33,063 bases of DNA from a bacterium (GTDB lineage: Bacteria; Acidobacteriota; Blastocatellia; HR10). The stretch spans positions 1 to 33,063 of the forward strand of contig JBEPZV010000030.1 in NCBI GenBank assembly GCA_041640655.1. Direction: 5' to 3'. Positions within the stretch are counted from its first letter, which is position 1, and every line of letters begins with the position of its first letter. The notes beneath the pieces are model-generated. The model saw nothing but the letters and a program-made list of their open reading frames with translations, had not been told where the DNA came from and searched no databases. Positions 1 through 19,384 of the stretch are shown one piece after another. The position numbers and the translations under genes were made by a program.

Positions 1-176
1 GCATCCGCGAAGGCCTCGGCCAATCGCGCGCCGAGCGCCGTGGCGATCTTCGGATATTGCAGCACGAGCGCGCACTGGATATAGCGCGCGCTGTGCAAGC
101 CCGAGGAGAGCCGAAAATGGCCCTCCAGAAGAGCCCCGGCCTCCCGAAAGAGGCGTCCGATGTCGTCTGTGCTCAT
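1..176 (-). CDS. pyrE: Orotate phosphoribosyltransferase, N-terminal part (runs off the window start)
   Basis: Not in the ORF track. Manual translation from ATG at 176 gives MSTDDIGRLFREAGALLEGHFRLSSGLHSARYIQCALVLQYPKIATALGARLAEAFAD, matching the PyrE N-terminal pattern GALLEGHFxLSSGxHS. AAGGAG SD upstream; ATGA overlap with the stop of the TPR gene. Confidence 0.92.
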   Translation of the reverse strand, partial: MSTDDIGRLFREAGALLEGHFRLSSGLHSARYIQCALVLQYPKIATALGARLAEAFAD

Positions 177-3100
177 CCCGTCGTCTCCTTCAGAGAATCA
201 GCCTCGCGTGGAGAAGAGGACGTCGCGCCTCGCCGCTCTTCCTCTGTCGCCAGCGGGGCGGCCTCTTCTTCGCCCCCAAGGGCGAGCGCGGTCGAGGGAG
301 AAGGAGGCGTCGGAGGAGTCACCCGAGGAGCTGGGCGCAACCGCTGGGCGAGGCGATCGACGAGTCCGCCGAGCAAGAGGGCCACGTCTTGCTCCGGAGA
401 GCGAACGGCTGGGCGCGGGGCTGATTCGCTTCGTTGTTGAATCGCCTTGCTGTAGGCGGCCGTCGCCCCCTCGAGGTCTCCCTTGATGTAGAGCATCCGC
501 CCCAGCTCATGGTAGGCTTCGGCGAAGACGCCCTGGCGTTGGGCGATGGCCTTCTGGAACGCTTCGATGGCCCGGGCGACTTCGCCTCGGCGCGCGTGCA
601 CGCGCCCCTTTTGGTAGTAGGCTTCGGGGAAGACGCCACGATTGGCCGCGATCGCCAGGGAGAATTGATCCAGAGCCGGATCGAGCATTCCCCGACGGCT
701 GTAGAGCAAGCCCAATTCGTAATGGGCCTCAGGAAAGCTCTGCGGATGAGTGGCGCAGACCGCGTGCAATGCGGCGATGGCTCCGTCCACATCGCCTTGC
801 GCGGTCAGGGCGCGCCCGAGCCAGTAGTGCGCTTCCGGGAAATCGCCCTGCTGCTCAAGCGCCGTCTGGAACTCGCGGGCAGCCGCGGCATACTCCCCCT
901 TCTCGTAGAGTGCTTTGCCGAGGTCGAAATGCGCTTCAGGGAAGGGGCCGCTCTTTTGCTCCAACGCCTGGCGTAGCTCCCGGAGCGCCTCCTCCAGTTG
1001 CCCCCGGCCGAGCGCGAGCACCCCCAAATAGTAGTGCGCTTCGGGATCGTTCGGGTGAAGCTCCAGCGCTTTCCGGAATGAGGCTTCCGCTTGCTCCCAT
1101 TCGCCCGCTTGCAGCAGCACCAGGCCCAGGTTGTGATGGAGCGCCGGATCGCGCCCGCCCGTTTGCTCCATCGCCTGCCGATAGGCCTCGATGGCTCTGG
1201 CGATGTCCCCTTGCCGCACGTAAGCGTTCCCCAAGTTCCACAGGGCTTCGGGGAAATGCCCGCCGCTTTGTTCGATCGCCGTGCGATAGGTCGAGATCGC
1301 ATCCTCGATTCGCCCTTGAGCGAGGAAGACGTTCCCCAGACTGTAGTACGCCAGGGGGAACAGCTCGCACTGCGCGATCGCCTGATGGAGCGCTTCCAGA
1401 GCCGCATCCAGCTCTCCTTGCTCGAGGAGCATGACGCCCAGGCTGTAGTACGCCAGAGGGAACGCATGGGGCTCGACTTCGATCGCGCGGTGAAAGGCGG
1501 CGCGCGCTTCGGCCACTTCCCCGCGTTCCCAGAGGGCGAGGCCGAGCCGATAGTGCGCTTGACCGAAATCGGGCTTGTGCTCGATGGCTGTGCGATAGGC
1601 GGCGATCGCCTGCTCCAGGTCTCCGCGCGCGAAGTAAGCGTTGCCGAGATCGTAATACCCCTCCGGGTATGGGCGTCCCGCCGTTTGAATCGCCGCCTGG
1701 AAGGCGACGATGGCGCGCTCGATCTCGCCCCGATCCAGAAGCGCCACTCCCAGATCATGATGCGCGCGCGAGAGATCGGGCTTGAGCTGGAGGGCGCGCT
1801 CCAGAGCGCGGATCGCCTCGTCCAGCTCGCCATTCAGATAGAGCGCGACGCCCAGGCCGTGATGCGCGTGCACGAAGTCGGGGCGGAGCGCGAGCGCCTG
1901 CCGATAGGCCTCGATGGCATCCTCCACGCGCCCGACGTGCAGCAGCGCGCGCCCCAGGTGATCGTACGCCTCGGGGAACTCCGGCTGCCCTTCAATCGCC
2001 AGGCGCAGACTCTGGATCGCGTCTTCCCACTCTCCAGCATCAAGCAGGGCGCGCCCCAGATGATAGTGCGCCTCGGGGAAATCGCTCCGCGCGCGCACGG
2101 CCTGGCGGAAGGCCTCGATGGCTTCCGGAAGCGCGTCCATTCCTTTTTGTTGAAGCGCGCGTCCGAGTTCCAGGTACGCTTCCGGCCACGGTGTCGGGCA
2201 CGCCGCGATCGCGCACCGATAGGCCTCGATGGCCTCCTCCAACTTCCCCTGCGCGAGGAGCGCGAGCCCCAAATCGCGCCATGCTTCCGGATACGGCTCC
2301 TGGCGCTGATGGATCGCCGTCTGGTACGCGTCGATGGCTTCGGCCAGATCACCGCGGCTATACGCGATGCGCCCCAGCAAATAGTATGCCTCCGGGAAGT
2401 GACGCTCGCGTTGCTCGATGGCCGTCCGAATCGCCTCATGGGCCGCCTCCAACTCTCCAAGCTCCAGGAGCGTGCGGGCCAAATTGAAATGCGCGTTGGG
2501 AAAGTGCGGATGTTCGGCGATCGCTTGACGGAAGGCGTCGGCCGCCGCCTGCAGCTCGCCTTTCTCGTGCAGTACGCGCCCGAGGTTATACTGCGCGCGC
2601 GGGAATGTCCCCCCGGCCGCCTCCAGCGCTTGGCGAAAAGCTGCAGCCGCTCGGTCCAGGTCCTTTCGGAGGAAGAAGAGGTGCCCGAGCTCGTACCAGC
2701 TCTCAGCCACCTCATATCCTTGGGCGATCACGTGCTCAAGATGCGCGATAGCCTCTTCCAAACGTCCGGCGCTGGCGAGCGCCCGCGCCAGCTCCAGCTC
2801 CGCTTCGGGAAAGTGCCCCTGTCGCTGTTCCACGGCGCGGCTGAGAGCCGCGATCGCCTCCTCATGCGCGCCCTGCGTCGCATACAGGCGGCCGAGATCG
2901 TAATACGCCCTGGGGAAGAAGGGATTCTGTTCGATGGCGCGATGATATGCGGCGGCGGCTTGCTCGACAGCCCCTTGCTGCGCGAGCAGCAGTCCGAGTT
3001 GGTGATGCGCCGCGGCGAAGTTCCCCCCGCGTTGGCGAATGGCTGTCTCCAGGGCTTCACGCGCGGCCTCTAGATCCCCCTGCCGCAAATACGCGCGCCC

Positions 3101-3865
3101 GAGATTGAAATAGGCCTCCGGATGATTCGGATGCACCTGAAGCAGCGCGCGGAAGGTGGCGATCGCTTCCTCCAGGCGCCCTCGCGCCAGCAATGCTCTC
3201 CCCAGCTCGTACTGCGCTTCGGGATACACACCCCCGCGTTGTGCGATCGCCGTGCGAAAGGCCTCGATCGCTTCTTCCAGATCGCCTTTCCCCATCAGGA
3301 GCCAACCGAGCTGAAAATGGATGTCCGGACTGTGCCCCCCGGACTGCTCGATGGCCGTGCGATAGGCCGCGATCGCCTCCTCGATGCGTCCGGTGTGCGC
3401 CAGCGCGAACCCCAGGTGAAAATGGGCGCGCGGGAAGATGCCGCCGCGTTGCGCGATCGCCTGCCGAAAGGCTTCGATCGCTCGCTCGACCTCCCCTTTA
3501 CCGAGGAGCGCCAGCCCGAGATTGTGATAAGCGCCGGGATGGTTCCCACCCGTTTGTTCAATGGCACGCTCATAGGCCGCGATGGCCTCTTCGAGCTCGC
3601 CGCGCCGAGCCAGCGCCATCCCCAAATAATAGTGCGCTTCCGGATACTGCGGCTGTTGCTCAATGGCCGTTCGAAACGCGGCGATCGCTCGCTCCACATC
3701 CCCGGCGTCATAAAGGGCTCGGCCCAGTAGGAAATAGGCTTTGGGGAACCGACCTTGCTGCTGCTTGATCGCCGCGCGAAGGGCCGTGATCGCCGCCTCC
3801 AGCTCCCCCCGCTGATAATGGTGCTGCGCCTGGTCGAGATAGTGCTGAGCGAGATAACCCGTCAT
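173..3865 (-). CDS. Very large tetratricopeptide-repeat protein (about 33 TPRs, 1230 aa) with Pro/Ser/Thr-rich C-terminal tail
   Basis: Continuous 34-36 aa repeats of the form PEAxYxLGxALxxxGxxEEAIxAxRxAIxQ. Start reassigned to ATG 3865 (MTGYLAQ) behind AGGAGG, because the 4090 start overlaps the kinase gene. No signal peptide or catalytic domain seen. Confidence 0.9.
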   Translation of the reverse strand: MTGYLAQHYLDQAQHHYQRGELEAAITALRAAIKQQQGRFPKAYFLLGRALYDAGDVERAIAAFRTAIEQQPQYPEAHYYLGMALARRGELEEAIAAYERAIEQTGGNHPGAYHNLGLALLGKGEVERAIEAFRQAIAQRGGIFPRAHFHLGFALAHTGRIEEAIAAYRTAIEQSGGHSPDIHFQLGWLLMGKGDLEEAIEAFRTAIAQRGGVYPEAQYELGRALLARGRLEEAIATFRALLQVHPNHPEAYFNLGRAYLRQGDLEAAREALETAIRQRGGNFAAAHHQLGLLLAQQGAVEQAAAAYHRAIEQNPFFPRAYYDLGRLYATQGAHEEAIAALSRAVEQRQGHFPEAELELARALASAGRLEEAIAHLEHVIAQGYEVAESWYELGHLFFLRKDLDRAAAAFRQALEAAGGTFPRAQYNLGRVLHEKGELQAAADAFRQAIAEHPHFPNAHFNLARTLLELGELEAAHEAIRTAIEQRERHFPEAYYLLGRIAYSRGDLAEAIDAYQTAIHQRQEPYPEAWRDLGLALLAQGKLEEAIEAYRCAIAACPTPWPEAYLELGRALQQKGMDALPEAIEAFRQAVRARSDFPEAHYHLGRALLDAGEWEDAIQSLRLAIEGQPEFPEAYDHLGRALLHVGRVEDAIEAYRQALALRPDFVHAHHGLGVALYLNGELDEAIRALERALQLKPDLSRAHHDLGVALLDRGEIERAIVAFQAAIQTAGRPYPEGYYDLGNAYFARGDLEQAIAAYRTAIEHKPDFGQAHYRLGLALWERGEVAEARAAFHRAIEVEPHAFPLAYYSLGVMLLEQGELDAALEALHQAIAQCELFPLAYYSLGNVFLAQGRIEDAISTYRTAIEQSGGHFPEALWNLGNAYVRQGDIARAIEAYRQAMEQTGGRDPALHHNLGLVLLQAGEWEQAEASFRKALELHPNDPEAHYYLGVLALGRGQLEEALRELRQALEQKSGPFPEAHFDLGKALYEKGEYAAAAREFQTALEQQGDFPEAHYWLGRALTAQGDVDGAIAALHAVCATHPQSFPEAHYELGLLYSRRGMLDPALDQFSLAIAANRGVFPEAYYQKGRVHARRGEVARAIEAFQKAIAQRQGVFAEAYHELGRMLYIKGDLEGATAAYSKAIQQRSESAPRPAVRSPEQDVALLLGGLVDRLAQRLRPAPRVTPPTPPSPSTALALGGEEEAAPLATEEERRGATSSSPREADSLKETTG

Positions 3866-3890
3866 GATCCCCCTCCTGGCGCTCCGGGTT

Positions 3891-6413
3891 TTATTCCCGA
3901 AAGTGGAAGAGCACGGCTCGACTGCCACGAAGCCAGACGAGAAGCGGAGCGCTCGTGGGTGCTCCCGTTCGCTTCGCCCGGACGACCTCTCGACCGTTGA
4001 GCGCCAGCGCCACTTCGTTTCGATCCGCCACGAGCGTGAGCGTCCAGGGAGTGGCCGGATCCGGCGGATCATTGAGCGGCTCCAGCACATCCTCTCGCGC
4101 GCCGATGAGGCGAACGGGGCGAACGCTCCAGGCGGAGAATTCGCGCGCGCGCTCGAGCCGAAAGCCGAGCGCTACATCCCCTGATCGGAAGAGGAGGACA
4201 CAGTGCCGTTCGGTCGAGGGCGGAGCGAGCGCCAGCTCGAAGGTGAGCCGAGGGGGGATGTCCGCTCGGAGCAGGCGTGGGATGGGTTCTCCCTGAGCGT
4301 GAAGCAGAAGAGCATCGCGCGTTCGATCAAGCCACGCACCTCCATCGCTCCGGGAGAGCGCCTGCTGCCACAGGCGGCGCGCATCTTCCAGACGACCGAG
4401 GCGCAGTGCGTAGAGCTCGGCGAGCGCCTCCAGAGCCTCCGGGAACTGATCGCGCCGCTGCTCGAGCGCCAGGCGTAGCTGCTCTTCCGCCTCCTCATAG
4501 CGTCCGACGGCGGGATCGGCGAGGACCAGGGCCAGGTCGTATCGAGCCTCCGGGAAATTTCCCCCGCGCAAGAGGAGAGCCGCGCGTAGTTCGGCGAGCG
4601 CCCGCTCATAGTCGCGCACGCGATAGAGCGCGCGCCCCAGCACGTGACGGGCGGTCGGGTCATTCCCCCCACGCTTGGCGAGCGCTGTCGAGAGCACCTC
4701 GATGGCCATCGGGGCTTCCCCCCGCTCCAGGAGCACGCGCCCGAGCACGAGATAGGCTTCTGGAAAGAGGCCGTTCTTCAATCGAATCGCCCGCCGGAGT
4801 TCCCGCACGGCCAGCTCATACTGCTTTTGCAGAAGGAGGATGCGCCCGACTTCAAGCAGATCCTCGGGATTCTCCCCCGCCCGCTCGAGCGCCTCGCCGA
4901 GCACGCGCTCGGCTTCCTCGCGCCGCCCCTGACGCAGATACAGCTCGCCGAGAGCCGTGGCGGCGGCGATCAAGCGGCCGCGACTTTGTTCGAGAGCCGC
5001 TCGAAAGGCACGCTCGGCGCCCTCGGCATCCCCCTCCTCCCACAACACGCGTCCGAGCTGAAGCTGCGCTTCCGGGAACGCGCCGCCCGCTTGTTCCAGC
5101 GCCCGCAGGACTTCGCTCTTGGCCCCGGCGATCTCCCCCTGATCCAGATAAATGAGGCTCAGCAAATAATGCGCGCGCGCATTACCCACTGCACTCCCGG
5201 CGATGATCTCCCGCAACAGTCGAGCGGCACCCTCTCGATCCCCCTCCTCGAACAAGCGCCAGGCTTCTGAGAGCGGATCGTAAATCGAGCGCGGCGCGGG
5301 CGGAGCGGCGATGGCGGGCGGCGGCGGAAGAGGCGGCCAGTTGGTCAACCACCGATAGGTCCGATATCCCAATCCGCTCGCGCCCACCAGCAGGAGCGCG
5401 CTCGCCAGCACTACCCCCCATCGGGGGCGGATGAGACGAGCGGTGGGCGCCGCGCTCTCTTGAGGGCGCGTGGGGTGAACCGGAACTCCTTCGGCCGAGG
5501 TCGGACGCGACGGAAGCCGCACGGTTCGTCGTCCCGTGCTCGCGCGCACCGCGCGCTCGAACTCCTCCGCCAATTCCCACGCGCTCTGCGGCCGGGCCGC
5601 CGGATCCTTGCTGAGCGCGCGCCGCACGACGGCCTCGATCTCCGGATTCACATCCGGCCGCAGCGCTCGAAGCGGCGGCGGCTCCTCGTGGACATGCTTG
5701 AGCATGACCTCCATCGGATCTCCCTCGAAGGGAGGACGTCCCGCCAGCATCTCATACAGGATCACGCCCACGCTGTAGATGTCCGAGAGCGCCGTCGGGC
5801 TCTTCGCCTGACATTGTTCGGGAGAGGCGTATTCTGGTGTGCCGATGAAGACACGGCGCGAGAGGGGGTCTCGATCCCGCTTCTGCTCATCCACCACCTT
5901 CGCGATGCCGAAGTCGAGCACCTTGACGTAATCCCTCTCCCCAGCCGCCTGCTGCAAGATGATGTTGTCCGGCTTGAGATCACGATGGATGATCCCTTGA
6001 GCGTGCGCTTCGGCCAGCGCCGAACAAATTTGCGTGAGGATGCGCGCCGCGCGCGCGGGCGAGAAGGGGCCTTCGCGCTTCAGCACCTCGGTGAGCGTCT
6101 CCCCCTCCAGATACTCCATGAGCAGGTAGACGACGTCGTCCTCGCGTCCGCAATCCACAATGTTGATCGCATGCGGGTGCGTGATGCGGGCCGCCGCGCG
6201 CGCCTCATGCAGGAAGCGTTCGACGAAGCTCGGATAGGCCGCCAGATCCTCCAGCAGGACTTTGAGCGCGACCACCTTCCCCGTCACGACGTTCCGCGCG
6301 CGGTAGACGCTCCCCATCCCCCCTTGTCCGATCTTCGCCTCGATTTGATACTTGCCCGCGATCGTGCGTCCCAGCAGCCGATCCGGCTTGGTCTCTTCCA
6401 TCGGTCCGGTCAT
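3891..6413 (-). CDS. Hanks-type Ser/Thr protein kinase with one TM helix, TPR repeats and a C-terminal beta-rich domain
   Basis: Motifs GQGGMG, VALK, HRDLKPDN, DFG, GTPEYASPE, DIYSVG. Hydrophobic segment WGVVLASALLLVGASGLGY, a Pro-rich linker, then about 9 TPR-like repeats. Start could be 6401. Confidence 0.92.
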   Translation of the reverse strand: MTGPMEETKPDRLLGRTIAGKYQIEAKIGQGGMGSVYRARNVVTGKVVALKVLLEDLAAYPSFVERFLHEARAAARITHPHAINIVDCGREDDVVYLLMEYLEGETLTEVLKREGPFSPARAARILTQICSALAEAHAQGIIHRDLKPDNIILQQAAGERDYVKVLDFGIAKVVDEQKRDRDPLSRRVFIGTPEYASPEQCQAKSPTALSDIYSVGVILYEMLAGRPPFEGDPMEVMLKHVHEEPPPLRALRPDVNPEIEAVVRRALSKDPAARPQSAWELAEEFERAVRASTGRRTVRLPSRPTSAEGVPVHPTRPQESAAPTARLIRPRWGVVLASALLLVGASGLGYRTYRWLTNWPPLPPPPAIAAPPAPRSIYDPLSEAWRLFEEGDREGAARLLREIIAGSAVGNARAHYLLSLIYLDQGEIAGAKSEVLRALEQAGGAFPEAQLQLGRVLWEEGDAEGAERAFRAALEQSRGRLIAAATALGELYLRQGRREEAERVLGEALERAGENPEDLLEVGRILLLQKQYELAVRELRRAIRLKNGLFPEAYLVLGRVLLERGEAPMAIEVLSTALAKRGGNDPTARHVLGRALYRVRDYERALAELRAALLLRGGNFPEARYDLALVLADPAVGRYEEAEEQLRLALEQRRDQFPEALEALAELYALRLGRLEDARRLWQQALSRSDGGAWLDRTRDALLLHAQGEPIPRLLRADIPPRLTFELALAPPSTERHCVLLFRSGDVALGFRLERAREFSAWSVRPVRLIGAREDVLEPLNDPPDPATPWTLTLVADRNEVALALNGREVVRAKRTGAPTSAPLLVWLRGSRAVLFHFRE

Positions 6414-6465
6414 TCGCGCGATGCTCTTGCCTGATCCCCTCTCTTGCCGTATCCTGATAGGCTTT

Positions 6466-6493
6466 ATCTTATCGCAAAACGAATCGGATGCAA
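6466..6493 (-). promoter_or_regulatory. Putative sigma70-type promoter for the kinase-TPR-pyrE operon
   Basis: Minus strand TTGCAT-N16-TAAGAT in an AT-richer divergent intergenic region. Confidence 0.35.
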
Positions 6494-6520
6494 GCCATTT
6501 CCAACCAGGGAGGTGAGCGG

Positions 6521-7585
6521 ATGCCGAGACTCACGCGCCGCCATTTCGTGTTGAGTGGAATGACCGCCCTCGTCTCCACGCGGATGCGATCCGCGCGGGC
6601 GCAGTCACGAACCCCGAATCGGCCGCTGGCGATCGCCAGCGCCAATCGCGTCACCTTGCCCGACGGCACGGTCTATTACAACGGGATTCGCGCGACGGCG
6701 CGGGCGTTCGAGCTGATGCGCGCCGGGAGCGATCCCCTGGATGCGGTGATCGCCGGCGTCACGATCGTTGAGGATGATCCCAACGATATGAGCGTCGGGT
6801 ATGGCGGCTTGCCGAATGAAGAGGGTGAGGTCGAATTGGACGCCTCAGTCATGCACGGACCGACGGGCCGCTGTGGCGCCGTCGCGGCCTTGCGCTACAT
6901 CAAGAATCCCTCTCGGGTCGCGCGTCTGGTCATGGAGGAGACCGATCACATCTTGCTCGTCGGCGAAGGTGCGCTGCGGTTCGCGCTCTCGTTCGGCTTC
7001 CAGAAGCAAGATCTGTTGACGGAACGCGCGCGCCAGGTGTGGCTCCAATGGCGACGCGAGCGCAGCGAGCGGGATCACTGGATGCAGCATCAGCTTCCCG
7101 GGGCGTTGCGCTCGGCGCTTCAGACTCTGGATGGGACGCACTTCACGGGGACGATCAATTGCCTGGCGATCACCGAAGCGGGGGATCTGGCCGGCGTGAC
7201 CACCACAAGTGGCCTGGCCTTCAAAGTCCCTGGGCGCGTCGGCGACTCCCCGATCATCGGGTGCGGCCTCTACGTGGATAATGACGTCGGGGCGGCGGGC
7301 TCGACCGGTTGGGGCGAGGATAATATCCGCGTCGTCGGCGCTCACACGGTCGTGGAGAATATGCGGCGTGGTATGAGTCCACTGGAGGCGTGCCTGGACG
7401 CCCTGCGGCGCATCGTCAAACTCTACGGCGGACGGCCCGCGCATCAGGTGAATTTCTACGCCCTCAACAAGAATGGCGAGTACGCCGGAGCCGCCATCTT
7501 CAAGGGGGCGCAATTCGCCGTCACCGATGCGCGCGGCAGCCGCGTCGAAGACTCCGCTTATCTCCTCGAGCGCCCGCCGCAGTGA
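6521..7585 (+). CDS. N(4)-(beta-N-acetylglucosaminyl)-L-asparaginase / isoaspartyl peptidase family (Ntn hydrolase), Tat signal peptide
   Basis: Motifs SVGYGGLPNEEGEVELDA, GTINC (nucleophile Thr), TTTSGL, GRVGDSPIIG. Twin-arginine TRRHFV with ARA cleavage site. GGAGGTG SD before ATG 6521. Confidence 0.88.
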   Translation: MPRLTRRHFVLSGMTALVSTRMRSARAQSRTPNRPLAIASANRVTLPDGTVYYNGIRATARAFELMRAGSDPLDAVIAGVTIVEDDPNDMSVGYGGLPNEEGEVELDASVMHGPTGRCGAVAALRYIKNPSRVARLVMEETDHILLVGEGALRFALSFGFQKQDLLTERARQVWLQWRRERSERDHWMQHQLPGALRSALQTLDGTHFTGTINCLAITEAGDLAGVTTTSGLAFKVPGRVGDSPIIGCGLYVDNDVGAAGSTGWGEDNIRVVGAHTVVENMRRGMSPLEACLDALRRIVKLYGGRPAHQVNFYALNKNGEYAGAAIFKGAQFAVTDARGSRVEDSAYLLERPPQ

Positions 7586-7629: not shown

Positions 7630-9753
7630 TCAGCCGAGATGCTCGCGGAGGACTCGCACCAGGTCCTCAACCTGAAAGGGCTTCTCGATCACAGGCCTCT
7701 GGGTCCGATCCAGAAAGGCGCGCGTTCGCGGATCCACAAGGTCCCCAGTGAGGAAGATCATGCGCTCGCGCATCTCCGGCCACTTCTCGGCGATCTCTTC
7801 GTAGACCTCTTGTCCGCTGAGACCCGGCATCTTGAGATCGCAGAGGATCAGGTCATAGGTGCGATGCCGCAGTTTCTCCAGTGCTTGAAACCCATCACTC
7901 GCGGTATCCGTGTGATGTCCTTCCGCCTCCACGAGTTTCTTGATGAGGTCCAGAAGAGCTGGCTCGTCCTCTACGAGAAGGAGGGATCGTGCCGAGGAGG
8001 AGGGTGGGGGGAGGGCTGGCGCTGGCTCCACATGGCCTGCATCGTCCTGGTCAATCGGGAGCTCCACGATGAAGGTCGCTCCCTGTCCCGGTCGGCTGTG
8101 AACGTAGAGCCGGCCTCCGTGTTCCTGAACAATGCTGTGAGAGATTGAGAGGCCCAATCCGGTCCCCTGCCCGACAGGCTTCGTCGTGAAGAAAGGCTCG
8201 AAGATGCGATGGATGATGGCTTCGGGGATTCCCGGCCCATCGTCGGCGATCGCGATGCGTATCCAGCTCTCTGAACCTTGGCGTGAGTGCGCCCGAGAGT
8301 CCGAGGGAGAAAGGCATTGCGTGCGGATGGTCAGGCGTCCTCGCCCGTGCGCTTCCAGCATCGCCTGTTCCGCATTGATGATGAGGTTGAGGAGGACCTG
8401 CTGCAGTTGGGAGCCATCGGCGGGGATCGGAGGGAGAGTGGGGTCGAACTCTTTGATGACCTCGATGTTGTTCACTCGCAGGTGATAGGCGCGAAGCGCC
8501 AGCGTGCCCTCGATCAGATCATTGATCTTCACCAGAGATCGCGCGTGCTGTTTCGGTCGGGCGAACGTGAGCAGGTTCTGCACAATCCGCCGCGCCCGCA
8601 GCGCGGCCTCAGAGATGGCATTCAGGCCACTGGCGAGAGCGGGGGGGAGGTCCGGCTCAACGCGCATCAACTCGCTGTATCCGATGATGATGGCCAGGGG
8701 ATTGTTCAATTCGTGCGCGACGCCGGAGATGAGCTGTCCGAGCGCCGCCATCTTCTCCGACTGGAGGATCTGCTCGCGAAGCGCCTTCGCCTCGCTGACG
8801 TCGCGCGCGATGACCAACAGGGAGGGCTGGCCTTCGTATTCGATCGCGCAGGCATTGATGTTGACGAAGATGTGGCGCCCATCTTTGCCGATCAGGACCA
8901 CATCCTGAGGTGTGCTCGGCTCCCCCGGCTTGCGGGAGAGGTATTGTGTTCGCACCAGCTCCCGATAATCGTCGCGCACGAGATCCAGAAAATCCCGCGC
9001 GGTGATCTCTTCCGCGGAGTATCCGAGCATCTTCAAGCCGGAGGTATTGCAGTAGCGGAAGCGTCCCTGCTGGAGGATCGCCACAGCATCCGCCGCGCTC
9101 TCGATGATCGCCCGAAGTTGTTGCTCCGAATGGTGCAGCCGCTCGGCCTGCTCTCGCGTGGCCTCCAGCAGATTCGAGACCTCACGATAGAGGGAAGCGT
9201 TCTCCAGGGCGACGCCAATGATATTCCCCACCGAATCCAGGAATTGGTGCGCGTCAGCATCCCACTCGCGGGGGCGGCGATGCGCCAGGACGACGACGCC
9301 CAGGATATTCCCCTTCGCCTTCAAGGGGATCAGCGCGTGGAAGCGAAATCCCTCCCGCCGGAGGAGGCGACCGATCACTCCTTCCGTGGGCTCGCCGATG
9401 ACGGAGGTCCTCTGACTCAGGACACGGGAGAGGACAGCATCCTGTGGCCCCACATGTTGAAGAGGGGCGAGCGTTGTCGCCTGCAGCCCCTGGTGCGCCA
9501 GCAGGCGAAAAGCATCCGAGGGAAAGTCCCTCAGCAGGATAATTCCCGCGTCCAGCTCCAGCAAGCGCAGGATGTGATCGAGAGCCAGAGGGAGCGTTCG
9601 GTTCACGTCGAGCGATTGGCTCACAGCCGTCGCGATCGCGTTCAGGGCCACCAGTTGCTTGTTTTGTTCCAAAAGGCGGCCAGCTCGCCGGAGGATCCGC
9701 TCATGGGGTTCATGAAGCAGGGCTCGGGCATCGGACGGCGAATGGGCATTCAT
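7630..9753 (-). CDS. Soluble hybrid sensor histidine kinase (GAF-PAS-HisKA-HATPase-REC)
   Basis: H-box GVAHELNNPL, N-box QVLLNLIINA, DDGPGI, FEPFFTTK, GTGLGL, and receiver LLVEDE...DLKMPG...KP. N-terminal GAF and PAS; no TM. Start 9753 (MNAHS) behind GGAGG; the alternative 9786 overlaps the S8 stop. Confidence 0.92.
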   Translation of the reverse strand: MNAHSPSDARALLHEPHERILRRAGRLLEQNKQLVALNAIATAVSQSLDVNRTLPLALDHILRLLELDAGIILLRDFPSDAFRLLAHQGLQATTLAPLQHVGPQDAVLSRVLSQRTSVIGEPTEGVIGRLLRREGFRFHALIPLKAKGNILGVVVLAHRRPREWDADAHQFLDSVGNIIGVALENASLYREVSNLLEATREQAERLHHSEQQLRAIIESAADAVAILQQGRFRYCNTSGLKMLGYSAEEITARDFLDLVRDDYRELVRTQYLSRKPGEPSTPQDVVLIGKDGRHIFVNINACAIEYEGQPSLLVIARDVSEAKALREQILQSEKMAALGQLISGVAHELNNPLAIIIGYSELMRVEPDLPPALASGLNAISEAALRARRIVQNLLTFARPKQHARSLVKINDLIEGTLALRAYHLRVNNIEVIKEFDPTLPPIPADGSQLQQVLLNLIINAEQAMLEAHGRGRLTIRTQCLSPSDSRAHSRQGSESWIRIAIADDGPGIPEAIIHRIFEPFFTTKPVGQGTGLGLSISHSIVQEHGGRLYVHSRPGQGATFIVELPIDQDDAGHVEPAPALPPPSSSARSLLLVEDEPALLDLIKKLVEAEGHHTDTASDGFQALEKLRHRTYDLILCDLKMPGLSGQEVYEEIAEKWPEMRERMIFLTGDLVDPRTRAFLDRTQRPVIEKPFQVEDLVRVLREHLG

Positions 9754-9782
9754 CCTCTCACTCCCTCCCACGACCGGCATCC

Positions 9783-10979
9783 TCATTGAGTGAGGGCTGC
9801 GAACGCATCGATGCGTCCGTATCCGAGTCCGCTACCGACATAGATGGCGCTGTTCAGGACCCGGCTGGGATCGCGCCCGAGGGAGAGCACGAGGGCCACG
9901 GTCCCGCTGACGAAAGGCGCAGAGAAGGACGTACCGCTCCACCAGGCGTACCGCCCTCCCGGATATGCGCTATAAATATTCACGCCTGGCGCGCACAGAT
10001 CCACGAAGGCTCCGTAATTCGAGAAATCGGCCTTGCGATCCTGCGGATCCGTCGCCGCTACGGCCCATACCAGCGCTTCTTCTGACGCCGGGAATGGTGG
10101 TGTGCTGCTATTGTCGTTCCCCGCCGACGCGATGAGCGTGACCCCCTGTTGCGCGGCGAACTGCAAGGCCTCTCGGATCGCCCGCGAGGGTGTGGAGAGG
10201 CCAAAACTCATGTTGATCACCTGAGCCCCTCGCATCGCGGCGAACCGGATCGCCTTCACGACGTCGGCAGCCGTGCCCACGCCATCTGACGTGAACGCCC
10301 GCATGGGCATCAGCGTTGCCTCTCGCGCGACGAGCGCGACAATACCAGCGACCATCGTCCCATGACCATAAGCCGGACCACCTCCCTGTTCCACGGGCGT
10401 GCGGTCTTGATCCACAAAGTCATAGCCTTCAGTGAGCCTTGTGAAAACCGGATGCGTGGGGTCAATTCCTGTATCAATCACCGCCACGGTGATGCCCTCA
10501 CCTCGCGTGATAGTCTGCGCTTGCTTCAGACGCAGCAGTCGCGCGGCGTATTGATCAAAATAATCTGATGGGGAATAGCCATCGACGAAGGCCTGGCTTC
10601 GCTGATCCACGAACGCCTGACTTCGCTGATCAAGCTGGAAGATCCGCAGAAGGAAATTCGGCTCTGCCCATTCCACAGCGGGATCGCTCTTCAAGAGGGC
10701 GAGCGCTTGTGGGACTCCCAGAAGCGGAGGCAAGCCCAACCGAAATGTGTTCGCCTCCAGACGGTCGAGGATCGTGAGTCCCAGGCGTTGCACTACGGTC
10801 TGGATGTCCTGTCCTGGTCGCCCTTTGCAGAGGACCTCTCCCTCGCGATACAGGGGGTTGGATTGGGCCCGCGCAGAGGGTCCGAAGGAAACGAGCGAGT
10901 GCGAGCCACTCAGGCTCCAGAACAGAGACCAGATGAGAATCCAAACGCTACGGCGCGCTCGCGTGATGTGGTATCTCAT
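9783..10979 (-). CDS. S8 (subtilisin-like) serine peptidase with signal peptide and N-terminal prodomain
   Basis: Triad motifs VIDTG (D), HGTMVAG (H), GTSFSAP (S) and oxyanion SAGND. Hydrophobic N-terminus ending ARA|Q; prodomain ending AVEWAEPNF; AGGAGG SD. Confidence 0.92.
   Translation of the reverse strand: MRYHITRARRSVWILIWSLFWSLSGSHSLVSFGPSARAQSNPLYREGEVLCKGRPGQDIQTVVQRLGLTILDRLEANTFRLGLPPLLGVPQALALLKSDPAVEWAEPNFLLRIFQLDQRSQAFVDQRSQAFVDGYSPSDYFDQYAARLLRLKQAQTITRGEGITVAVIDTGIDPTHPVFTRLTEGYDFVDQDRTPVEQGGGPAYGHGTMVAGIVALVAREATLMPMRAFTSDGVGTAADVVKAIRFAAMRGAQVINMSFGLSTPSRAIREALQFAAQQGVTLIASAGNDNSSTPPFPASEEALVWAVAATDPQDRKADFSNYGAFVDLCAPGVNIYSAYPGGRYAWWSGTSFSAPFVSGTVALVLSLGRDPSRVLNSAIYVGSGLGYGRIDAFAALTQ
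10581..10631 (-). repeat. Tandem 24-bp coding repeat encoding DQRSQAFV-DQRSQAFV-D at the S8 prodomain/catalytic junction
   Basis: Unit 1 GATCAGCGAAGTCAGGCGTTCGTG (10608-10631) and unit 2 GATCAGCGAAGCCAGGCCTTCGTC (10584-10607) are 21/24 identical, and all 3 differences are synonymous third positions. Confidence 0.95.
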
Positions 10980-13913: not shown

Positions 13914-14552
13914 CTACGGCAAGCCTTCCTCTGTTTGAAGCAGCGCTTGAAGCCCGGTGATGCGAATCTCGTCCCCTTCGCGCTGCAGTCGCATGTCGTA
14001 GATGCCTTCGGGGATCCCCTCGAGGACGAATTCTCCCATCGGATTGATCTTCGCCGTGCTCACCAGCTGATCCCCCCGCCACAATTCGACGATCGCCTCA
14101 CCGAAAGGGGGGATGCCCTCTCCACACGGGAGCACTTGCCCCAACAGGTCCACTCCGAGGGTGGTCTCCGAGCGCTCGATCAGCAGATCGATCTCGTAGG
14201 CACCGGCTCGATATAACATCTGCCGCGAGGATGGACCTATGTGGCGAAGTCCGAGCAGACGGCTTTCGGCGAAATTATCTATAACGAGGAAGGCCAGGAT
14301 GCGCGAGAGCCGGCTGGGTGAGGGATCCATCAGCCGCTGGCGAAACAGGACGACGGCATGACGAAAAAGCCATTCTGGAGGGTCCAGAAGGCGCGGATTC
14401 GTGATCACCTCCAGAAGGTCGCGTAATCGGCTCATCTCCCGGTGGCAACGGACGCATCCGGCCTCAACATGTCTCTGAACTGCTCCTCTCTTGTCCTCGG
14501 GCAGCTCGCCTTGCAGGAGATCGAGAAGCTCATCAAGGGTCGGACACGCCAT
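13914..14552 (-). CDS. Putative soluble anti-sigma factor: zinc-finger (ZAS-like) N-terminus plus carboxypeptidase-regulatory-like beta-sandwich C-terminus
   Basis: Start reassigned to ATG 14552 (MACPTLDELL) with AGGAG SD. Contains C...HVEAGCVRC and a C-terminal LLGQV...GEFVLEGIPEGIYDMRL pattern. No TM. Lies directly downstream of an ECF sigma. Confidence 0.75.
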   Translation of the reverse strand: MACPTLDELLDLLQGELPEDKRGAVQRHVEAGCVRCHREMSRLRDLLEVITNPRLLDPPEWLFRHAVVLFRQRLMDPSPSRLSRILAFLVIDNFAESRLLGLRHIGPSSRQMLYRAGAYEIDLLIERSETTLGVDLLGQVLPCGEGIPPFGEAIVELWRGDQLVSTAKINPMGEFVLEGIPEGIYDMRLQREGDEIRITGLQALLQTEEGLP

Positions 14553-14583
14553 GTTCTCCTCCCCGTCATGTTCTCCTTCCCTC
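14550..14583 (-). repeat. 17-bp period direct repeat duplicating SD plus ATG (AGGAGAACATG x2)
   Basis: Minus strand GAGGGAAGGAGAACATG-ACGGGGAGGAGAACATG, 14/17 identical. The first ATG (14569) is out of frame with the gene. Confidence 0.8.
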
Positions 14584-14623
14584 TTTATATGTGCCGCCTT
14601 GCGGCGAAAAGATGCACCTCCGC

Positions 14624-15217
14624 CTAAAATCCCAGCCGCTTCAGGGCGTTCACGAACCGCCTCAAGCACCGCGCGCGCATGGGACCGATACTGGAGGCGG
14701 CGAGCCCGAGCTCTTGAGCGATCTCGGCATACGGCTCCTTCTCGTAAAAGAGAAGGATCAGCAGGCGACGACAGGGTTCTCCGATCTCCTCCAACGCTTG
14801 TCGAACGAGCTGTTCGCGCTCCAGCCGCTCGATCTCTTCGAGCGGCAGAGGGGCGGCGTCCGGTTGCTGCAGGAGTTCCTGTCGCGCCTGCTCCAAACTG
14901 ATCCACTCGGGACGTTGCCGTCGTTGCACGCGAGCGCACTGTCGGATCGTGATGGTCGCCACCCATGAGCGGAATCTCGTTTCATCCTTGAGCTTGTGGA
15001 GGTTCTCCAAGATCACCACACAGACGGATTGGAACACATCGGCGACGTCCTCGGGGGGCAACCCCGCTCTCCACGCGAGGGAGTAGATCAAGCGTCCGTA
15101 TCGCTCCAGGAGCGCGATCCACGCCTGTTCCTCTCCCTGCAGGCACAGGGCGATGAGGTCTCTATCGGTGAGACGCCGGTATGCATCCGGTGCATGTTCC
15201 ATAGCGTCGTGCTCCAT
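14624..15217 (-). CDS. ECF (group IV sigma-70) RNA polymerase sigma factor
   Basis: Region 2 (AWIALLERYGRLIY...DVADVFQSV...FRSWVATI) and region 4 HTH (PYAEIAQELGLAASSIGPMRARCL); about 197 aa. Start could be 15202. Confidence 0.92.
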   Translation of the reverse strand: MEHDAMEHAPDAYRRLTDRDLIALCLQGEEQAWIALLERYGRLIYSLAWRAGLPPEDVADVFQSVCVVILENLHKLKDETRFRSWVATITIRQCARVQRRQRPEWISLEQARQELLQQPDAAPLPLEEIERLEREQLVRQALEEIGEPCRRLLILLFYEKEPYAEIAQELGLAASSIGPMRARCLRRFVNALKRLGF

Positions 15218-15489: not shown

Positions 15490-17211
15490 TCATCGGCGCG
15501 CGGCAAGAGGGTGGATGCGCAACTCCTCGACGTTCCAAAGGAGGAAATCGGGGATGAGGCCAGGTTTGAGGTTCTCCACATGGGCCTTCGCCGCGACGAT
15601 CAGATCGCGAGCCACCAAGTAAATGAACGGCACGTGCTCTGCCATAATCTCCTGCACCCGATCGAAGAGCGCCTTTCGCCGTGCGGGATCGAATGTGCGC
15701 ATCTGTGCGTCCATCAGGTCGTCGATCTGTCGCTCCCATGCGGTGGCCGGAGCCTTCTGCCGGGGATACCACCAGTGGCTCGTCCCCCAACTGGGAAGGA
15801 CATTGTTGAGAGCCGAGGGATCTGTGTCCCCGAGCGCGAGCCCCAGCAGTCCGGCTTCATAGTCGAAGCTTTGTTCGAGGCGGGCGAACAAAGATTTCGC
15901 TTCCAGAGGTACGAGCTGGACGTGAAGGCCCACCTTCCTGAGATCCTCTTGGATCATCAACCCGAGGCGTTCGCGAATCGGATTTCCCGCAGTCGTCACA
16001 ATAGTGAAGGAGACTGGGCGTCCCTGTCGGTCTTCCAGTCGCCCATCACCGTCGCGGTCGGTCAGCCCCATCTCAGCCAGGAGAGTGCGGGCGCGAGTGG
16101 GATCATACGGATAGGTTCGCACCCTCGGGTTGTACCAGGGGCTTGAGGGGGGGACCGGTCCCCACACCGGAGTCGCCTTTCCTGAGAAAAGGACCTCGAC
16201 CAGGGCCTGACGATCAATGGCGAAGGCGATCGCTTGGCGGAATCGCACGTCTTGAAACCACGCCCGCTTCCACGGGGGGATGCGCGGCGCTTGCGGGTTC
16301 AGGTTGAACCACAGGACTTCGGAGATGAGGCTCGGACCGAGATCATGCACACGAACAGCGCGCGCCTCCATCTGAGGCTGCAATCGCGCGGCTTCCTCCG
16401 GCGTGATCGGAGCCAGAAGATCCAGCTCCCCTTGCTGGAACTTCAGGAATCGGGTGTTCCGATCGGGCACGATCAGGAAGAGGAGTTCATCCAAGTAAGG
16501 GAGCCGTCGCTTCTGCGCATCGCGCTTCCAGTAGTAGGGATTGCGCACGAGGACGGTCCGTTGTCCGGGCACATACTCTTTCAACATGAAGGGGCCAGCA
16601 CCGACGATTTCCGATGCCGGTGTGGAGAGTCCCCACACTGAACGGAAGCGCCCCTCTCGGTACGGCCGCTCCAGGCGATGTCGGGGCAGGATGAAGACCG
16701 CGTCAAACACGCGCTCTATCGGGGCATAGGCATAAGGGAGTGTGAATGTGAGCGTGAGCTCATCCTCGCGATGGATCGCGATCTTCCGCCCTCCAATTTT
16801 CAATAGGTCGGCCAGAGCGTTCGGCACGTTCGGGTCATAAATGACCTCGAACGTGAAGAGGACGTCGTCGGCTGTGAGTGGATGCCCATCGGAGAAGGCG
16901 AGTCCGTGCCGGAGTCGGAGGATCAGTTGCGTTCGATCCTTTGAGTAGCTGAGCGATTCGGCCAGTTCGAGTTCCGGCTGGCCTGTCTGCCGGTTGATCC
17001 GAATCAGCGGAGCCATCAGGCAACTGAGAATGCTCAAGCTCTCTTGATCGTCCGCGAAGAGCGGATTGAACGTCTTCGGCCCTGCGGCCTGGGCGACTAC
17101 CAAACGCCCCCCCGATCCCCCCGAGGATGGTGGAGAAGGAGCGCGATGGCAGGAAGCCGTCACGCTCACAAGCAGCAGGATCCCCAGTCGAGTGATCCTC
17201 GCGCTGTTCAT
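15490..17211 (-). CDS. Peptide/nickel ABC transporter substrate-binding lipoprotein (family 5, OppA/DppA-like)
   Basis: Lipobox-like VTASC; PKTFNP; FSDGHPLTADDVLFT; GAGPFML; RNPYYW; FRQAIAFAIDR. Confidence 0.92.
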   Translation of the reverse strand: MNSARITRLGILLLVSVTASCHRAPSPPSSGGSGGRLVVAQAAGPKTFNPLFADDQESLSILSCLMAPLIRINRQTGQPELELAESLSYSKDRTQLILRLRHGLAFSDGHPLTADDVLFTFEVIYDPNVPNALADLLKIGGRKIAIHREDELTLTFTLPYAYAPIERVFDAVFILPRHRLERPYREGRFRSVWGLSTPASEIVGAGPFMLKEYVPGQRTVLVRNPYYWKRDAQKRRLPYLDELLFLIVPDRNTRFLKFQQGELDLLAPITPEEAARLQPQMEARAVRVHDLGPSLISEVLWFNLNPQAPRIPPWKRAWFQDVRFRQAIAFAIDRQALVEVLFSGKATPVWGPVPPSSPWYNPRVRTYPYDPTRARTLLAEMGLTDRDGDGRLEDRQGRPVSFTIVTTAGNPIRERLGLMIQEDLRKVGLHVQLVPLEAKSLFARLEQSFDYEAGLLGLALGDTDPSALNNVLPSWGTSHWWYPRQKAPATAWERQIDDLMDAQMRTFDPARRKALFDRVQEIMAEHVPFIYLVARDLIVAAKAHVENLKPGLIPDFLLWNVEELRIHPLAARR

Positions 17212-17241
17212 CTTTGTCTCGTGCTAGCTTTGCACAGTAGC

Positions 17242-17269
17242 ATTATACGGCGAGATCGCGCGCTTTCAA
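17242..17269 (-). promoter_or_regulatory. Putative sigma70 promoter for the ABC binding-protein gene
   Basis: Minus strand TTGAAA-N16-TATAAT in the divergent intergenic gap. Confidence 0.55.
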
Positions 17270-17283
17270 GGAGGCGAACGATC

Positions 17284-18252
17284 ATGTGGATTCTTATGTT
17301 GCGGCGCAGCATCCAGGCGATCGGGTTGTTGAGCGCTCTCTCTTTCGTGACTTTTCTGGCGCTGGCCCTCACCCCGGGGGATCCGCTCGCCCAAATGGAA
17401 GGGCGTCTCTCCCTCTCTCCGGAAGTGCGCGAGGCGTGGCGCCGGCAGTGGGGGTGGGATCAGCCTGTCCTGGTTCGATACGGACGATGGCTCGCTCAGG
17501 TCGCGAGGGGGCACCTCGGGTATTCGATCGCGTACCAGATGCCGGTCTCGGAGGTGATCGGTGCGCGTCTGGGGGTGACGCTCTTGCTCACCATCGCGGC
17601 GAGCGTGATCGCGTGGGGAGTCGGCCTTCCGCTGGGGATCGTCGCCGCTCTTCGAGCCCACACCTGGGTTGATCGACTCCACGCGGTGCTCATGGCGGCG
17701 GCGTTCACGACGCCCCGATTCTTCCTGGCCTTAGTCGCGCTCCTCTTTGCGATGGTGACAGGATGGTTCCCCTTAGGGGGCCTTCACTCCCCGGGGATCG
17801 AAACGGCGCCCGCTGTCCCGCGGATCCTGGACGTGATCCATCATCTGGTGCTCCCGGCGCTGGTGCTCAGCGTGCACCCTCTGGCTGTGATCTCCACCCA
17901 CCTTCGGGGCGCGCTCGTGGAGGTTCTGCAGGCGGATTTCGTCCGCACCGCTCGCGCCAAGGGACTTCCGCCGTGGGTCCTCCTGTGGCGGCACGCGCTG
18001 CGTCCGGCGCTCGCTCCCATGATCGTGCTCCTCGGTTACTCCATTGGGAGCCTCTTGAGCGGCTCCGCGGTCGTCGAAACGGTCCTGGCCTGGCCCGGAC
18101 TCGGACAGCTCGCCGTCGAGGCGGCATTGGCCCGAGATCCGGATGTCCTCATGGCCGCTGTTCTCGCGAGTGGAGCCGCGTTGATATTCGGAAATGTCAT
18201 CGCCGATGTGCTCCTCATGCTGAACGATCCGCGCGCTCGCAGTGAGGTATGA
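17284..18252 (+). CDS. Peptide ABC transporter permease (OppB/DppB-like)
   Basis: PGDP, GWDQP..RY..WL, GHLGYS, HLVLPA, DFVRTARAKGL (EAA loop), VETVLAWPGLG. AAGGAGG SD before ATG 17284. Confidence 0.92.
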   Translation: MWILMLRRSIQAIGLLSALSFVTFLALALTPGDPLAQMEGRLSLSPEVREAWRRQWGWDQPVLVRYGRWLAQVARGHLGYSIAYQMPVSEVIGARLGVTLLLTIAASVIAWGVGLPLGIVAALRAHTWVDRLHAVLMAAAFTTPRFFLALVALLFAMVTGWFPLGGLHSPGIETAPAVPRILDVIHHLVLPALVLSVHPLAVISTHLRGALVEVLQADFVRTARAKGLPPWVLLWRHALRPALAPMIVLLGYSIGSLLSGSAVVETVLAWPGLGQLAVEAALARDPDVLMAAVLASGAALIFGNVIADVLLMLNDPRARSEV

Positions 18253-18256
18253 GCTG

Positions 18257-19384
18257 ATGGCTTCTGCATCAGGCTTCCGTCGGATATGGGCCCATCCGCG
18301 GGCACGCCGACTGTTGGTGGCTGCTCTGGGCGTTTCTCTGCTGGCGCTTTTGGCCGGATTTATCGCTCCGTATGATCCCCGGACTCAGGATCGAGAAGCC
18401 GTGAAGATGCCACCACATCGGTTGCGCTTTCGTGATGCCGAGGGGCGTCTCCATCTGCGCCCCTTCTTTCATCCCTGGCGCATTGTGGATCGGGCGCGCT
18501 GGCGATACGAAGAAGACCGATCGCGCCGCTATGAGCTGGTGTTCTTCGTTCGCGGGGAGCAAGCCCCGCTTTTCCTCGGCGTGAGGACCTCGTGGCATCT
18601 CTTCGGGGTCCGCTCTGCTCCTTCGGCGCGCCGGGCAGGTCTCTTCGATCGAGGGGATCGGGAACGCCCTCCGCGCTTTTATCTGCTGGGCACGGATCCG
18701 CTGGGGCGCGACGTTTTCTCCCGCCTCGTTCACGGCGCGCGCCCCGCGCTCTTGATCGCTTCGTTGAGCCTGGCCGGAGCCTTCCTCGTCGGATTCGTGC
18801 TTGGGGGGCTGGCCGGATACTACGGTGGGATTGGAGACGCCGCGCTGATGCGCATCGCTGAGCTGGTGGAATCCGTCCCCATTCTCTTCCTGCTCTTGGC
18901 CTGGCGCGCGGCCCTCCCACTGCAACTCTCGGTCGAGATGAGTCTCTTCACGTTGGTGGCCCTCTTTGTGCTCGTGAGTTGGGCGGCAGTCGCCCGTATC
19001 ACTCGCGGATGCGTGCTCTCGTTGAAGACGCAGGACTTTGTCCTGAGCGCGCTCGCTCTGGGAGCTGGTCCGGGGTGGATCTTGCGACGTCATCTCCTAC
19101 CGAATGCGCTCACGCCCGCGCTCATTCAAGCGACGGTCATGCTCCCCAGCTTCCTCTTAGGAGAAACCGCGCTCTCCTTCCTCGGACTCGGCGTTCCAGA
19201 ACCCGAGCCGAGTTGGGGGAATATGTTGACAGCCGCGCGGGATCTCTCTGTGCTCTACGCGCATCCATGGCTCCTCGCTCCGGGATTCGCCATTTGGGGA
19301 CTCGTTCTGCTCTTCACACAGCTTGGCGAGGCCGTCCGCGCTGCATCCGATCCCCGCTCTCCACACTCGGCGCCGCTCATGTGA
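18257..19384 (+). CDS. Peptide ABC transporter permease (OppC/DppC-like)
   Basis: APYDP, LLGTDPLGRDVFSRL, DFVLSALALGA, RHLLPN, ETALSFLGLG, PSWGNML. Start ATG 18257 (alternative GTG 18242). Confidence 0.92.
   Translation: MASASGFRRIWAHPRARRLLVAALGVSLLALLAGFIAPYDPRTQDREAVKMPPHRLRFRDAEGRLHLRPFFHPWRIVDRARWRYEEDRSRRYELVFFVRGEQAPLFLGVRTSWHLFGVRSAPSARRAGLFDRGDRERPPRFYLLGTDPLGRDVFSRLVHGARPALLIASLSLAGAFLVGFVLGGLAGYYGGIGDAALMRIAELVESVPILFLLLAWRAALPLQLSVEMSLFTLVALFVLVSWAAVARITRGCVLSLKTQDFVLSALALGAGPGWILRRHLLPNALTPALIQATVMLPSFLLGETALSFLGLGVPEPEPSWGNMLTAARDLSVLYAHPWLLAPGFAIWGLVLLFTQLGEAVRAASDPRSPHSAPLM

Follow-up and report, generated by a model that had tools for sequence, protein, structure and literature searches.

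The window analysed here is a stretch of 33,063 nucleotides from an acidobacterium of the class Blastocatellia (contig JBEPZV010000030.1). On its minus strand (positions 9783–10979) it encodes a subtilase of family S8 of 398 residues (P0001) with a signal-peptide-like N-terminal segment. In this protein the octapeptide QRSQAFVD is encoded twice in tandem, at 10581–10631 on the minus strand, which corresponds to residues D117–D133 and reads DQRSQAFV DQRSQAFV D. The gene belongs to a conserved cassette, consisting of an ECF sigma factor, a zinc-finger anti-sigma-like protein, a protein with TPR repeats and a CHAT protease domain (TPR-CHAT), and the S8 protease itself. Comparison of the repeat across related genes indicates that the identity of the copies is maintained by selection, beyond what mere recency of the duplication would give.

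The two 24-nucleotide units differ at three places (AGT/AGC, GCG/GCC and GTG/GTC), all in the third codon position and all synonymous. This duplication had been reported in a preliminary description of the DNA; it was confirmed in the sequence and by Tandem Repeats Finder (10581–10631, period 24, 2.1 copies, 88% matches, score 81). Synonymous single-base changes possible per unit amount to 15/72, and the chance that three out of three changes are synonymous is ∼0.009. With the register set by the homologues, unit 1 (Q118–D125, QRSQAFVD) occupies positions 10605–10628 and unit 2 (Q126–D133, the same peptide with the three synonymous differences) positions 10581–10604, both on the minus strand. 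An Asp recurring every eight residues had also been pointed out. D125 and D133 are indeed invariant in 84 sequences, and thus as conserved as the catalytic residues, but the first Asp, D117, is not conserved, and homologues mostly carry R, E or A at that site. Because the residue preceding unit 1 is variable, the first Asp of the window falls outside the motif, and the conserved register is Q......D (Q118–D125, Q126–D133) and not D......V. QRSQAFVD and its five-residue core have no second carrier in the 3.1-Mb genome, except for one RSQAF in a frame of 54 residues.

The position of the repeat within the protease was assessed by Pfam, HMMER and AlphaFold2. A Fervidolysin_NPro-like prodomain (PF22148, 27.5 bits versus a cut-off of 21) covers residues 37–108 (10656–10871, minus strand), and the Peptidase_S8 catalytic domain (PF00082, E = 1.6e-38) residues 160–366 (9882–10502, minus strand). 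The Asp/His/Ser triad and the oxyanion Asn (D169, H206, S351 and N288) are invariant in 84 homologues; together with the PF00082 match and the fold this identifies the protein as a subtilase. The best solved relatives are thermitase and AK.1 protease, and in the HMMER alignment residue 1 of mature thermitase pairs with Y135, directly past the second unit (...QAFVDG). The Pfam prodomain ends at residue 108 (AEPN), which bears out the earlier placement of the repeat between prodomain and catalytic domain; the units fill exactly the gap from the prodomain to the expected thermitase-like mature N-terminus. The AlphaFold2 model (84 homologues) has a mean predicted local distance difference test score (pLDDT) of 90.4, with the prodomain and the catalytic domain each above 93. 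In the model the prodomain is packed on the catalytic domain, which, with the PF22148 match, is as expected for an N-terminal inhibitor/chaperone prodomain. For the linker the scores are 72, 59 and 63 (ten-residue blocks of 111–140) and below 50 at residues 128–134, and its secondary structure consists of a single beta-bridge at F123–V124, in unit 1. Unautoprocessed pro-subtilisin E (PDB 3whi, 381–385 aligned columns) is the best fold match; the target-normalised template modelling scores (TMt) of the S8 fold matches are 0.82–0.89.

The repeat was followed through the S8 family in the best 120 of 3117 homologues (representatives of 90% clusters). Two units are present in 102 of these, three in 4, five in 2, one in 11 and none in 1; 4 of the 11 single-unit homologues show a diverged second unit. 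All units are identical in 88 of the 108 multi-copy proteins, with one mismatch in 15, two in 4 and three in 1. The peptide itself comes in 48 distinct versions among these homologues, for instance QRSVAWVD, QKTVIFID, QVSHAFID, HNSQAYID and TRSFVFID. The consensus in the conserved register is Q-x-[S/T/G]-x-[A/I/V]-[F/Y/W]-[V/I/L/T]-D, in which positions 2 and 4 are the most variable. A profile search over 1.84 billion representatives of 50% clusters, of which the 150 best matches were inspected, yielded near-identical units in only about a dozen. Many of the remoter S8 proteins (P0134, P0136–P0139, P0144, P0148, P0150, P0151, P0158, P0170 and P0196 are examples) have a two-unit linker of 8+8 residues in which the second unit has diverged (PE-x-x, QxSxAF[VL]D, xxxPxF[VI][DE], xSPxxYF). 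The two-unit design is therefore old, with the units being kept identical in the acidobacterial clade.

Some remoter members depart from this pattern. In P0159 and P0252 another unit of eight residues, of the type SQAALDGF, is found at the same linker position in up to four repeats (four in P0159), which suggests that repeat expansion in the S8 linker arose more than once. Four proteins among the best profile matches (P0127, P0128, P0149 and P0187) are 3094–5373 residues long and have several S8-like stretches; they may be fusions, giant surface proteins or artefacts of assembly. At locus L203 (9450–12005) two tandem S8 genes follow one TPR-CHAT gene, and the linker units of both are degenerate and non-identical.

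Selection on the copies was evaluated in 35 distinct S8 genes that have two or more units, giving 37 adjacent copy pairs, some of which come from close genomes and are not independent. Among codon pairs for the same residue, 96 of 294 (0.33) use different codons, and the residue differs in only two codon pairs (T/V in L184 and V/A in L186). In nucleotides there are 100 synonymous and 5 non-synonymous differences (5/3/97 by codon position); only 2 of the 37 pairs are identical in DNA, and the two copies in L002 use TCG and AGC, respectively, for the same serine. As a reference, orthologue pairs were binned by how far their catalytic domains differ in synonymous codons, a measure that saturates at ∼0.5, paralogues within one genome included. 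At a synonymous difference of 0.3–0.4 the repeat residues of orthologues differ in 13 of 80 cases (16%), and at 0.4–0.5 in 343 of 1040. The ratio of non-synonymous to synonymous differences is ∼40-fold lower between copies (2:96) than between orthologues (13:16 and 343:345; Fisher p = 3e-8 and 1e-23, for pairs that are not independent). In comparisons between lineages, the rate of change of the repeat is close to the average for the protein. Since copies at a synonymous difference of 0.33 show two residue differences and orthologues at equal divergence differ at 16% of residues, the identity of the units is selected. The proposal that the duplication is old and the peptide under selection, originally drawn from three sites, has thus gained strong support.

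Individual loci give some indication of how the copies change together. In L209 the copies are nearly identical in DNA and share a two-base Q-to-M change, which fits conversion. Parallel changes in both copies, as seen on comparing L187 with L188 and L182 with L186, would fit either point mutation or micro-conversion. A copy-specific codon bias was observed in 33 two-copy S8 genes (L001–L231): in 8 genes the first copy has AGT for serine where the second has AGC, and the reverse never occurs, and the final Asp of the units is GAT and then GAC in 10 genes, with the opposite order in 2. This bias may reflect ancient copy identity or effects of sequence context. Two other roles for the repeat were considered and rejected. 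A role at the level of RNA does not agree with nucleotides that are unconserved while the peptide is conserved. The earlier suggestion of a beta-aggregating (amyloid) signalling motif was abandoned: the units are too short, the linker is of low confidence and has almost no secondary structure in the model, the peptide occurs nowhere else in the genome, and the partner proteins have no matching motif.

To place the repeat in its genomic context, 40 S8 places in 33 of 401 genomes of the same class were extracted with ∼9 kb on each side; counts refer to 42 distinct loci, the window included. A single-protein contig search had found the repeat at only two loci (L001 and L002), and a metagenome scan with generic S8 patterns added only L081 and L082. 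The TPR-CHAT protein of the window (958 residues, P0002; 11022–13898, minus strand; Pfam TPR_12, TPR_1 and TPR_2) is encoded directly upstream of the S8 gene, and its residues H826, H830 and C870 are invariant. A full-length orthologue (34–60% identity) adjoins S8 in 40 of the 42 loci, directly upstream on the S8 strand in 38 and divergently in L199 and L227. The remaining two are L196, which ends at a contig edge, and L232, where S8 is without the motif. Linkage of TPR-CHAT and S8 extends to other Acidobacteria and several other phyla, in which the linker is single or different. As judged by eye, a signal-peptide-like N-terminus is present in S8 and absent from TPR-CHAT.

Co-variation of the peptide with TPR-CHAT was determined for 31 cassettes by partial Mantel tests of peptide distance versus TPR-region distance. 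With the S8 catalytic domain controlled for, the peptide correlates with TPR residues 60–690 (partial r 0.32, permutation p = 0.0025), and partial r is 0.33 when the S8 catalytic and CHAT domains are both controlled for. The reverse partials are −0.02 and −0.15, the latter for peptide versus S8 plus CHAT given TPR. The signal resides in residues 60–340 of TPR-CHAT (0.37, 0.29) and is absent from 480–700 (0.05, 0.03). An empirical null was obtained from (overlapping) 8-column windows of similar variability in other proteins. For TPR 60–690, the observed value was reached by 2 of 173 windows of the S8 catalytic domain and 1 of 205 of the CHAT domain; for TPR 60–480, by 0 of 64 of the S8 prodomain, 0 of 173 of the small anti-sigma-like protein and 4 of 155 of the sigma factor. 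About 1% of the control windows overall reach the observed coupling. These results suggest that the divergence of the peptide is more closely related to that of the TPR domain than to that of the catalytic domain of its own protein. The preliminary description had proposed that S8 homologues from CHAT-linked loci be aligned; such homologues do have the motif, in a copy number of 1–5, and its sequence co-varies with the TPR portion of TPR-CHAT.

Where a genome has paralogous cassettes their peptides differ: the present genome has QRSQAFVD and QKTVIFID, and another has four different ones. With 48 peptides in circulation, such differences by themselves are weak evidence. The second pair of TPR-CHAT and S8 in this genome (locus L197; genome G000, contig C27, 2581–7326) has an S8 of 598–602 residues with two copies of QKTVIFID, and for the proteins matching it the precomputed Pfam annotation lists a DUF4398-type N-terminal extension. 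A sigma or small-protein gene upstream of the L197 cassette was not found by blastp, and the same holds for L198 and L202.

Upstream of TPR-CHAT lies the gene for a small soluble protein of 212 residues, starting MACPTLDELL (13914–14552, minus strand), with four N-terminal helices followed by a CarboxypepD_reg-like beta-sandwich. An orthologue is present in 34 of the 42 loci. C3, H28, C33 and C36 are invariant in 25 sequences, with a spacing of mostly H-x4-C-x2-C as compared to Cys...His-x3-Cys-x2-Cys in the zinc anti-sigma (ZAS) domain. CarboxypepD_reg is matched by 21 of the 25 (best E = 1.7e-8), and zf-HC2 weakly by 7 (best E = 0.025, below the cut-off). In a Foldseek comparison with the PDB the model of the small protein had no match at E ≤ 0.001, and the anti-sigma factor ChrR appeared only at E = 0.011. 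A mechanically called open reading frame of 350 residues (13914–14966) is over-extended here, and masks the 212-residue zinc-finger gene (start at 14552) as well as the sigma gene in another frame. The ECF sigma factor (Sigma70_r2 and Sigma70_r4_2; 14624–15217, minus strand) has counterparts in 29 of the 42 loci, and its position upstream of the small protein was confirmed by Pfam in 14 of 15 loci scanned, the window included.

On the sigma side a solute-binding protein of the Opp/Dpp type (SBP_bac_5; 15490–17211, minus strand) is encoded co-directionally upstream of the sigma gene, and two peptide ABC permease genes (17044–19384, plus strand) are divergent from the cassette. An Opp/Dpp-type importer abuts the sigma side in 11 of the 42 loci, many of which are incomplete, and in 8 genera; the binding proteins are 46–62% identical to one another. 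On the other side, the stop codon of S8 overlaps the start codon (ATGA, 9783–9786) of a lineage-specific GAF-PAS hybrid histidine kinase gene (7630–9786, minus strand). Related kinases were detected by blastp in L195, L203 and L227, directly downstream of S8 only in L195 (49% identity) and behind the second S8 in L203. Further along, the region 173–7585 encodes a protein of 1305 residues that is nearly all TPR, a Ser/Thr kinase with a TPR tail, and a member of the Asparaginase_2 family.

As a gene context this module has already been catalogued. The neighbourhood of ECF54 sigma factors is described as holding conserved carboxypeptidase-, subtilase- and CHAT-domain proteins, with proteolytic control proposed and no anti-sigma factor in that account (PMC8999054), and the group was defined in Actinobacteria (PMC7826278). 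The cassette of the window has the same composition, an ECF sigma factor with CHAT, subtilase and carboxypeptidase-regulatory-domain neighbours, a likeness in gene context.

Two of the functions originally suggested for the octapeptide, a repeated processing site and a released ligand for TPR-CHAT, remain the two leading readings. We tentatively favour the second, in which the units serve as a peptide signal specific to the cassette: cut out when S8 matures, imported, and read by TPR-CHAT. From the linker position of the units, the selection for their identity, the synteny and the co-variation we infer the following biochemical steps. The exported S8 would process itself at equivalent sites in each unit, in the register small-x-Ala-aromatic | Val/Ile-Asp or past the Val/Ile, freeing one or two defined octapeptides per S8 molecule. 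These would be taken up, plausibly via the often adjacent Opp-type importer, and, in the cytoplasm, bind to TPR-CHAT at its N-terminal TPR repeats. As Csx29 does with Csx30, the caspase-like domain of TPR-CHAT might then cut the anti-sigma-like protein, which would free the ECF sigma factor. Two identical copies would double the dose of one signal, and differing sequences would keep the paralogous cassettes of one genome apart. A wider version would give acidobacteria and their relatives cell-to-cell signalling of a new design, with the zymogen as its own pro-pheromone, a private octapeptide that switches TPR-CHAT on so that the anti-sigma factor is destroyed, and up to four insulated 'pherotype' cassettes per genome; this version we consider unlikely.

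Several points weigh against a released peptide signal, to begin with that cleavage, free peptide, import and binding are all steps that we infer. The proposal of a ligand for TPR-CHAT has gained indirect support and at the same time acquired a requirement for re-import: with a signal peptide on S8 and none on TPR-CHAT, the signal has two membranes to pass. No more than 11 of the 42 loci have the importer next to the cassette, and the peptide does not co-vary with the importer's binding protein (partial r −0.01, in 11 loci and at low power). The pairing of a secreted protease with a peptide importer would also be expected of an ordinary regulon for foraging on protein. One clade stably holds T/V at position 2, and the cassettes of L220, L221, L226, L233 and L234 have a single or degenerate unit; together with the diverged second units of distant members the latter imply that identity is not needed for the module as such. 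The mean synonymous difference between copies (0.33) is below saturation (∼0.5), from which, with the varying copy number and the near-identical copies of L209, it follows that turnover of units at the DNA level also contributes to the resemblance of the copies. Finally, partial Mantel tests are inflated by shared ancestry, and the TPR range 60–480 was picked after the segment results had been inspected.

The repeated processing site offers an explanation that stays within the protease, which we regard as possible though somewhat doubtful. Each unit would be a subtilisin self-cleavage site acting in cis, and two sequential cuts would first take off the prodomain and then trim the N-terminal extension, timing or securing activation. 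The units would be alike since both fit one active-site cleft, and TPR-CHAT, sigma and anti-sigma factor would merely regulate S8 expression. The conserved positions fit a subtilisin substrate (P4 small, P2 Ala, P1 aromatic; compare the subtilisin site ..HAY|AQS), and the variable positions 2 and 4 would then correspond to P5 and P3, which face the solvent. The low pLDDT of the linker with its one beta-bridge at F123–V124 and the match to unautoprocessed pro-subtilisin E are in agreement with this, as is the 8+8 layout of the remoter members, in which position 6 of each unit is still aromatic and position 8 acidic. The thermitase-like WF146 protease is reported to mature stepwise via a core prodomain and a linker peptide. 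Self-cleavage leaves unexplained, however, why solvent-facing variable positions are identical between copies (2 residue versus 96 synonymous differences) and why the peptide tracks the TPR region rather than its own catalytic domain (partial r −0.15); moreover, the aromatic residue is often H, N or S in single-unit members.

The co-variation with TPR fits equally well with a direct docking of TPR-CHAT on the S8 precursor before export, which is nonetheless quite improbable. Binding of the repeat by TPR would take place in the cytoplasm, perhaps followed by a cut of the caspase-like domain behind the invariant Asp, so that a protease cascade gates export or activation. Indeed, D125 and D133 are as invariant as the catalytic residues, more so than a subtilisin P2' would need, and CHAT-led protease cascades are described for type III-B CRISPR systems (bioRxiv 10.1101/2023.06.23.546230). 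On the other hand, all examined S8 proteins of CHAT-linked loci, the actinobacterial ones too, have signal-peptide-like N-termini, and the first site (PEV-R/D/E/A) is without Asp. Least of all do we expect a slippage-prone linker of no special function, in which units are gained and lost repeatedly under ordinary purifying selection on each: the copy number of 1–5, the sub-saturation synonymous difference and the L209 copies would suit it, but neutral turnover predicts equal non-synonymous/synonymous ratios in copies and orthologues (found ∼40-fold lower in copies), 108 of the best 120 homologues have retained at least two copies over deep divergence, and L002 has TCG versus AGC serines, so that it appears already disfavoured.

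The octapeptide as a peptide signal touches on three questions. To our knowledge, peptide quorum sensing through TPR receptors in the cytoplasm is considered particular to Gram-positive bacteria and their phages, and we know of no activating signal for free-standing TPR-CHAT proteases and of no mechanism for the ECF54-type sigma module. The octapeptide is a candidate ligand for all three (the range of quorum sensing, the input of TPR-CHAT and the mechanism of ECF54), and can be read from each genome. As an example of selection that holds tandem copies identical, the repeat is also uncommonly clear. Should the reading as a signal prove wrong, it would still be an element of subtilase zymogen activation that is maintained by selection and had gone unremarked; the literature searched yielded the gene context and two analogies, but no account of this linker repeat or of its concerted evolution.

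Among known systems, yeast alpha-factor and the Kex2-processed repeat proteins of fungi have tandem identical units with synonymous differences, concerted evolution and release by an S8 (kexin-type) protease. Those are eukaryotic, the protease and the precursor are separate proteins, and dibasic spacers separate the units. The WF146 protease and pro-subtilisin E (3whi) are like the present S8 in that the prodomain packs on the catalytic domain and maturation involves more than one cut in a short linker; we know of no tandem repeats in their linkers, no identity kept by selection and no partner protein that reads them. The ECF54 context (PMC8999054) shares the ECF sigma factor, the protein with a CarboxypepD_reg domain, the subtilase and the CHAT protein. 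It differs, as described there without an anti-sigma factor, from the present module, whose carboxypeptidase-like protein has a zinc anti-sigma-like N-terminal domain.

Two further systems come closest to the proposed mechanism. In the type III-E Craspase (Csx29, Csx30, Csx31 and CASP-sigma; PMC10028731) a TPR-CHAT protein, Csx29, is likewise found beside an ECF-type sigma factor and cleaves the soluble sigma inhibitor Csx30. No Cas7-11/gRAMP or other CRISPR genes were found among the neighbours scanned, which comprise part of the open reading frames of the window; the input here would be a peptide and not a target RNA, a secreted S8 is added, and cleavage of the small protein by CHAT is putative. 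The RRNPP(A) family, with Rap-Phr of the Bacillota, provides the other half. Its Phr pheromones are matured by subtilisin, Epr and Vpr. Tandemly duplicated Phr propeptides matured by extracellular proteases have been described (PMC11343458). The likeness would comprise a secreted precursor, extracellular maturation, re-import by an oligopeptide permease, a cytoplasmic TPR receptor, a possible tandem pheromone and private specificities of paralogues. The candidate for a cytoplasmic TPR receptor is P0002, which has the Pfam TPR matches and, by eye, no signal peptide. In contrast to RRNPP systems, the candidate peptide lies inside a protease zymogen and not in a small pro-peptide gene, the host is a diderm acidobacterium, and the TPR protein bears a CHAT protease in place of a phosphatase or DNA-binding domain. 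By analogy, the combination would join peptide sensing of the RRNPP type to sigma control of the Craspase type, both of which are known kinds of regulation.

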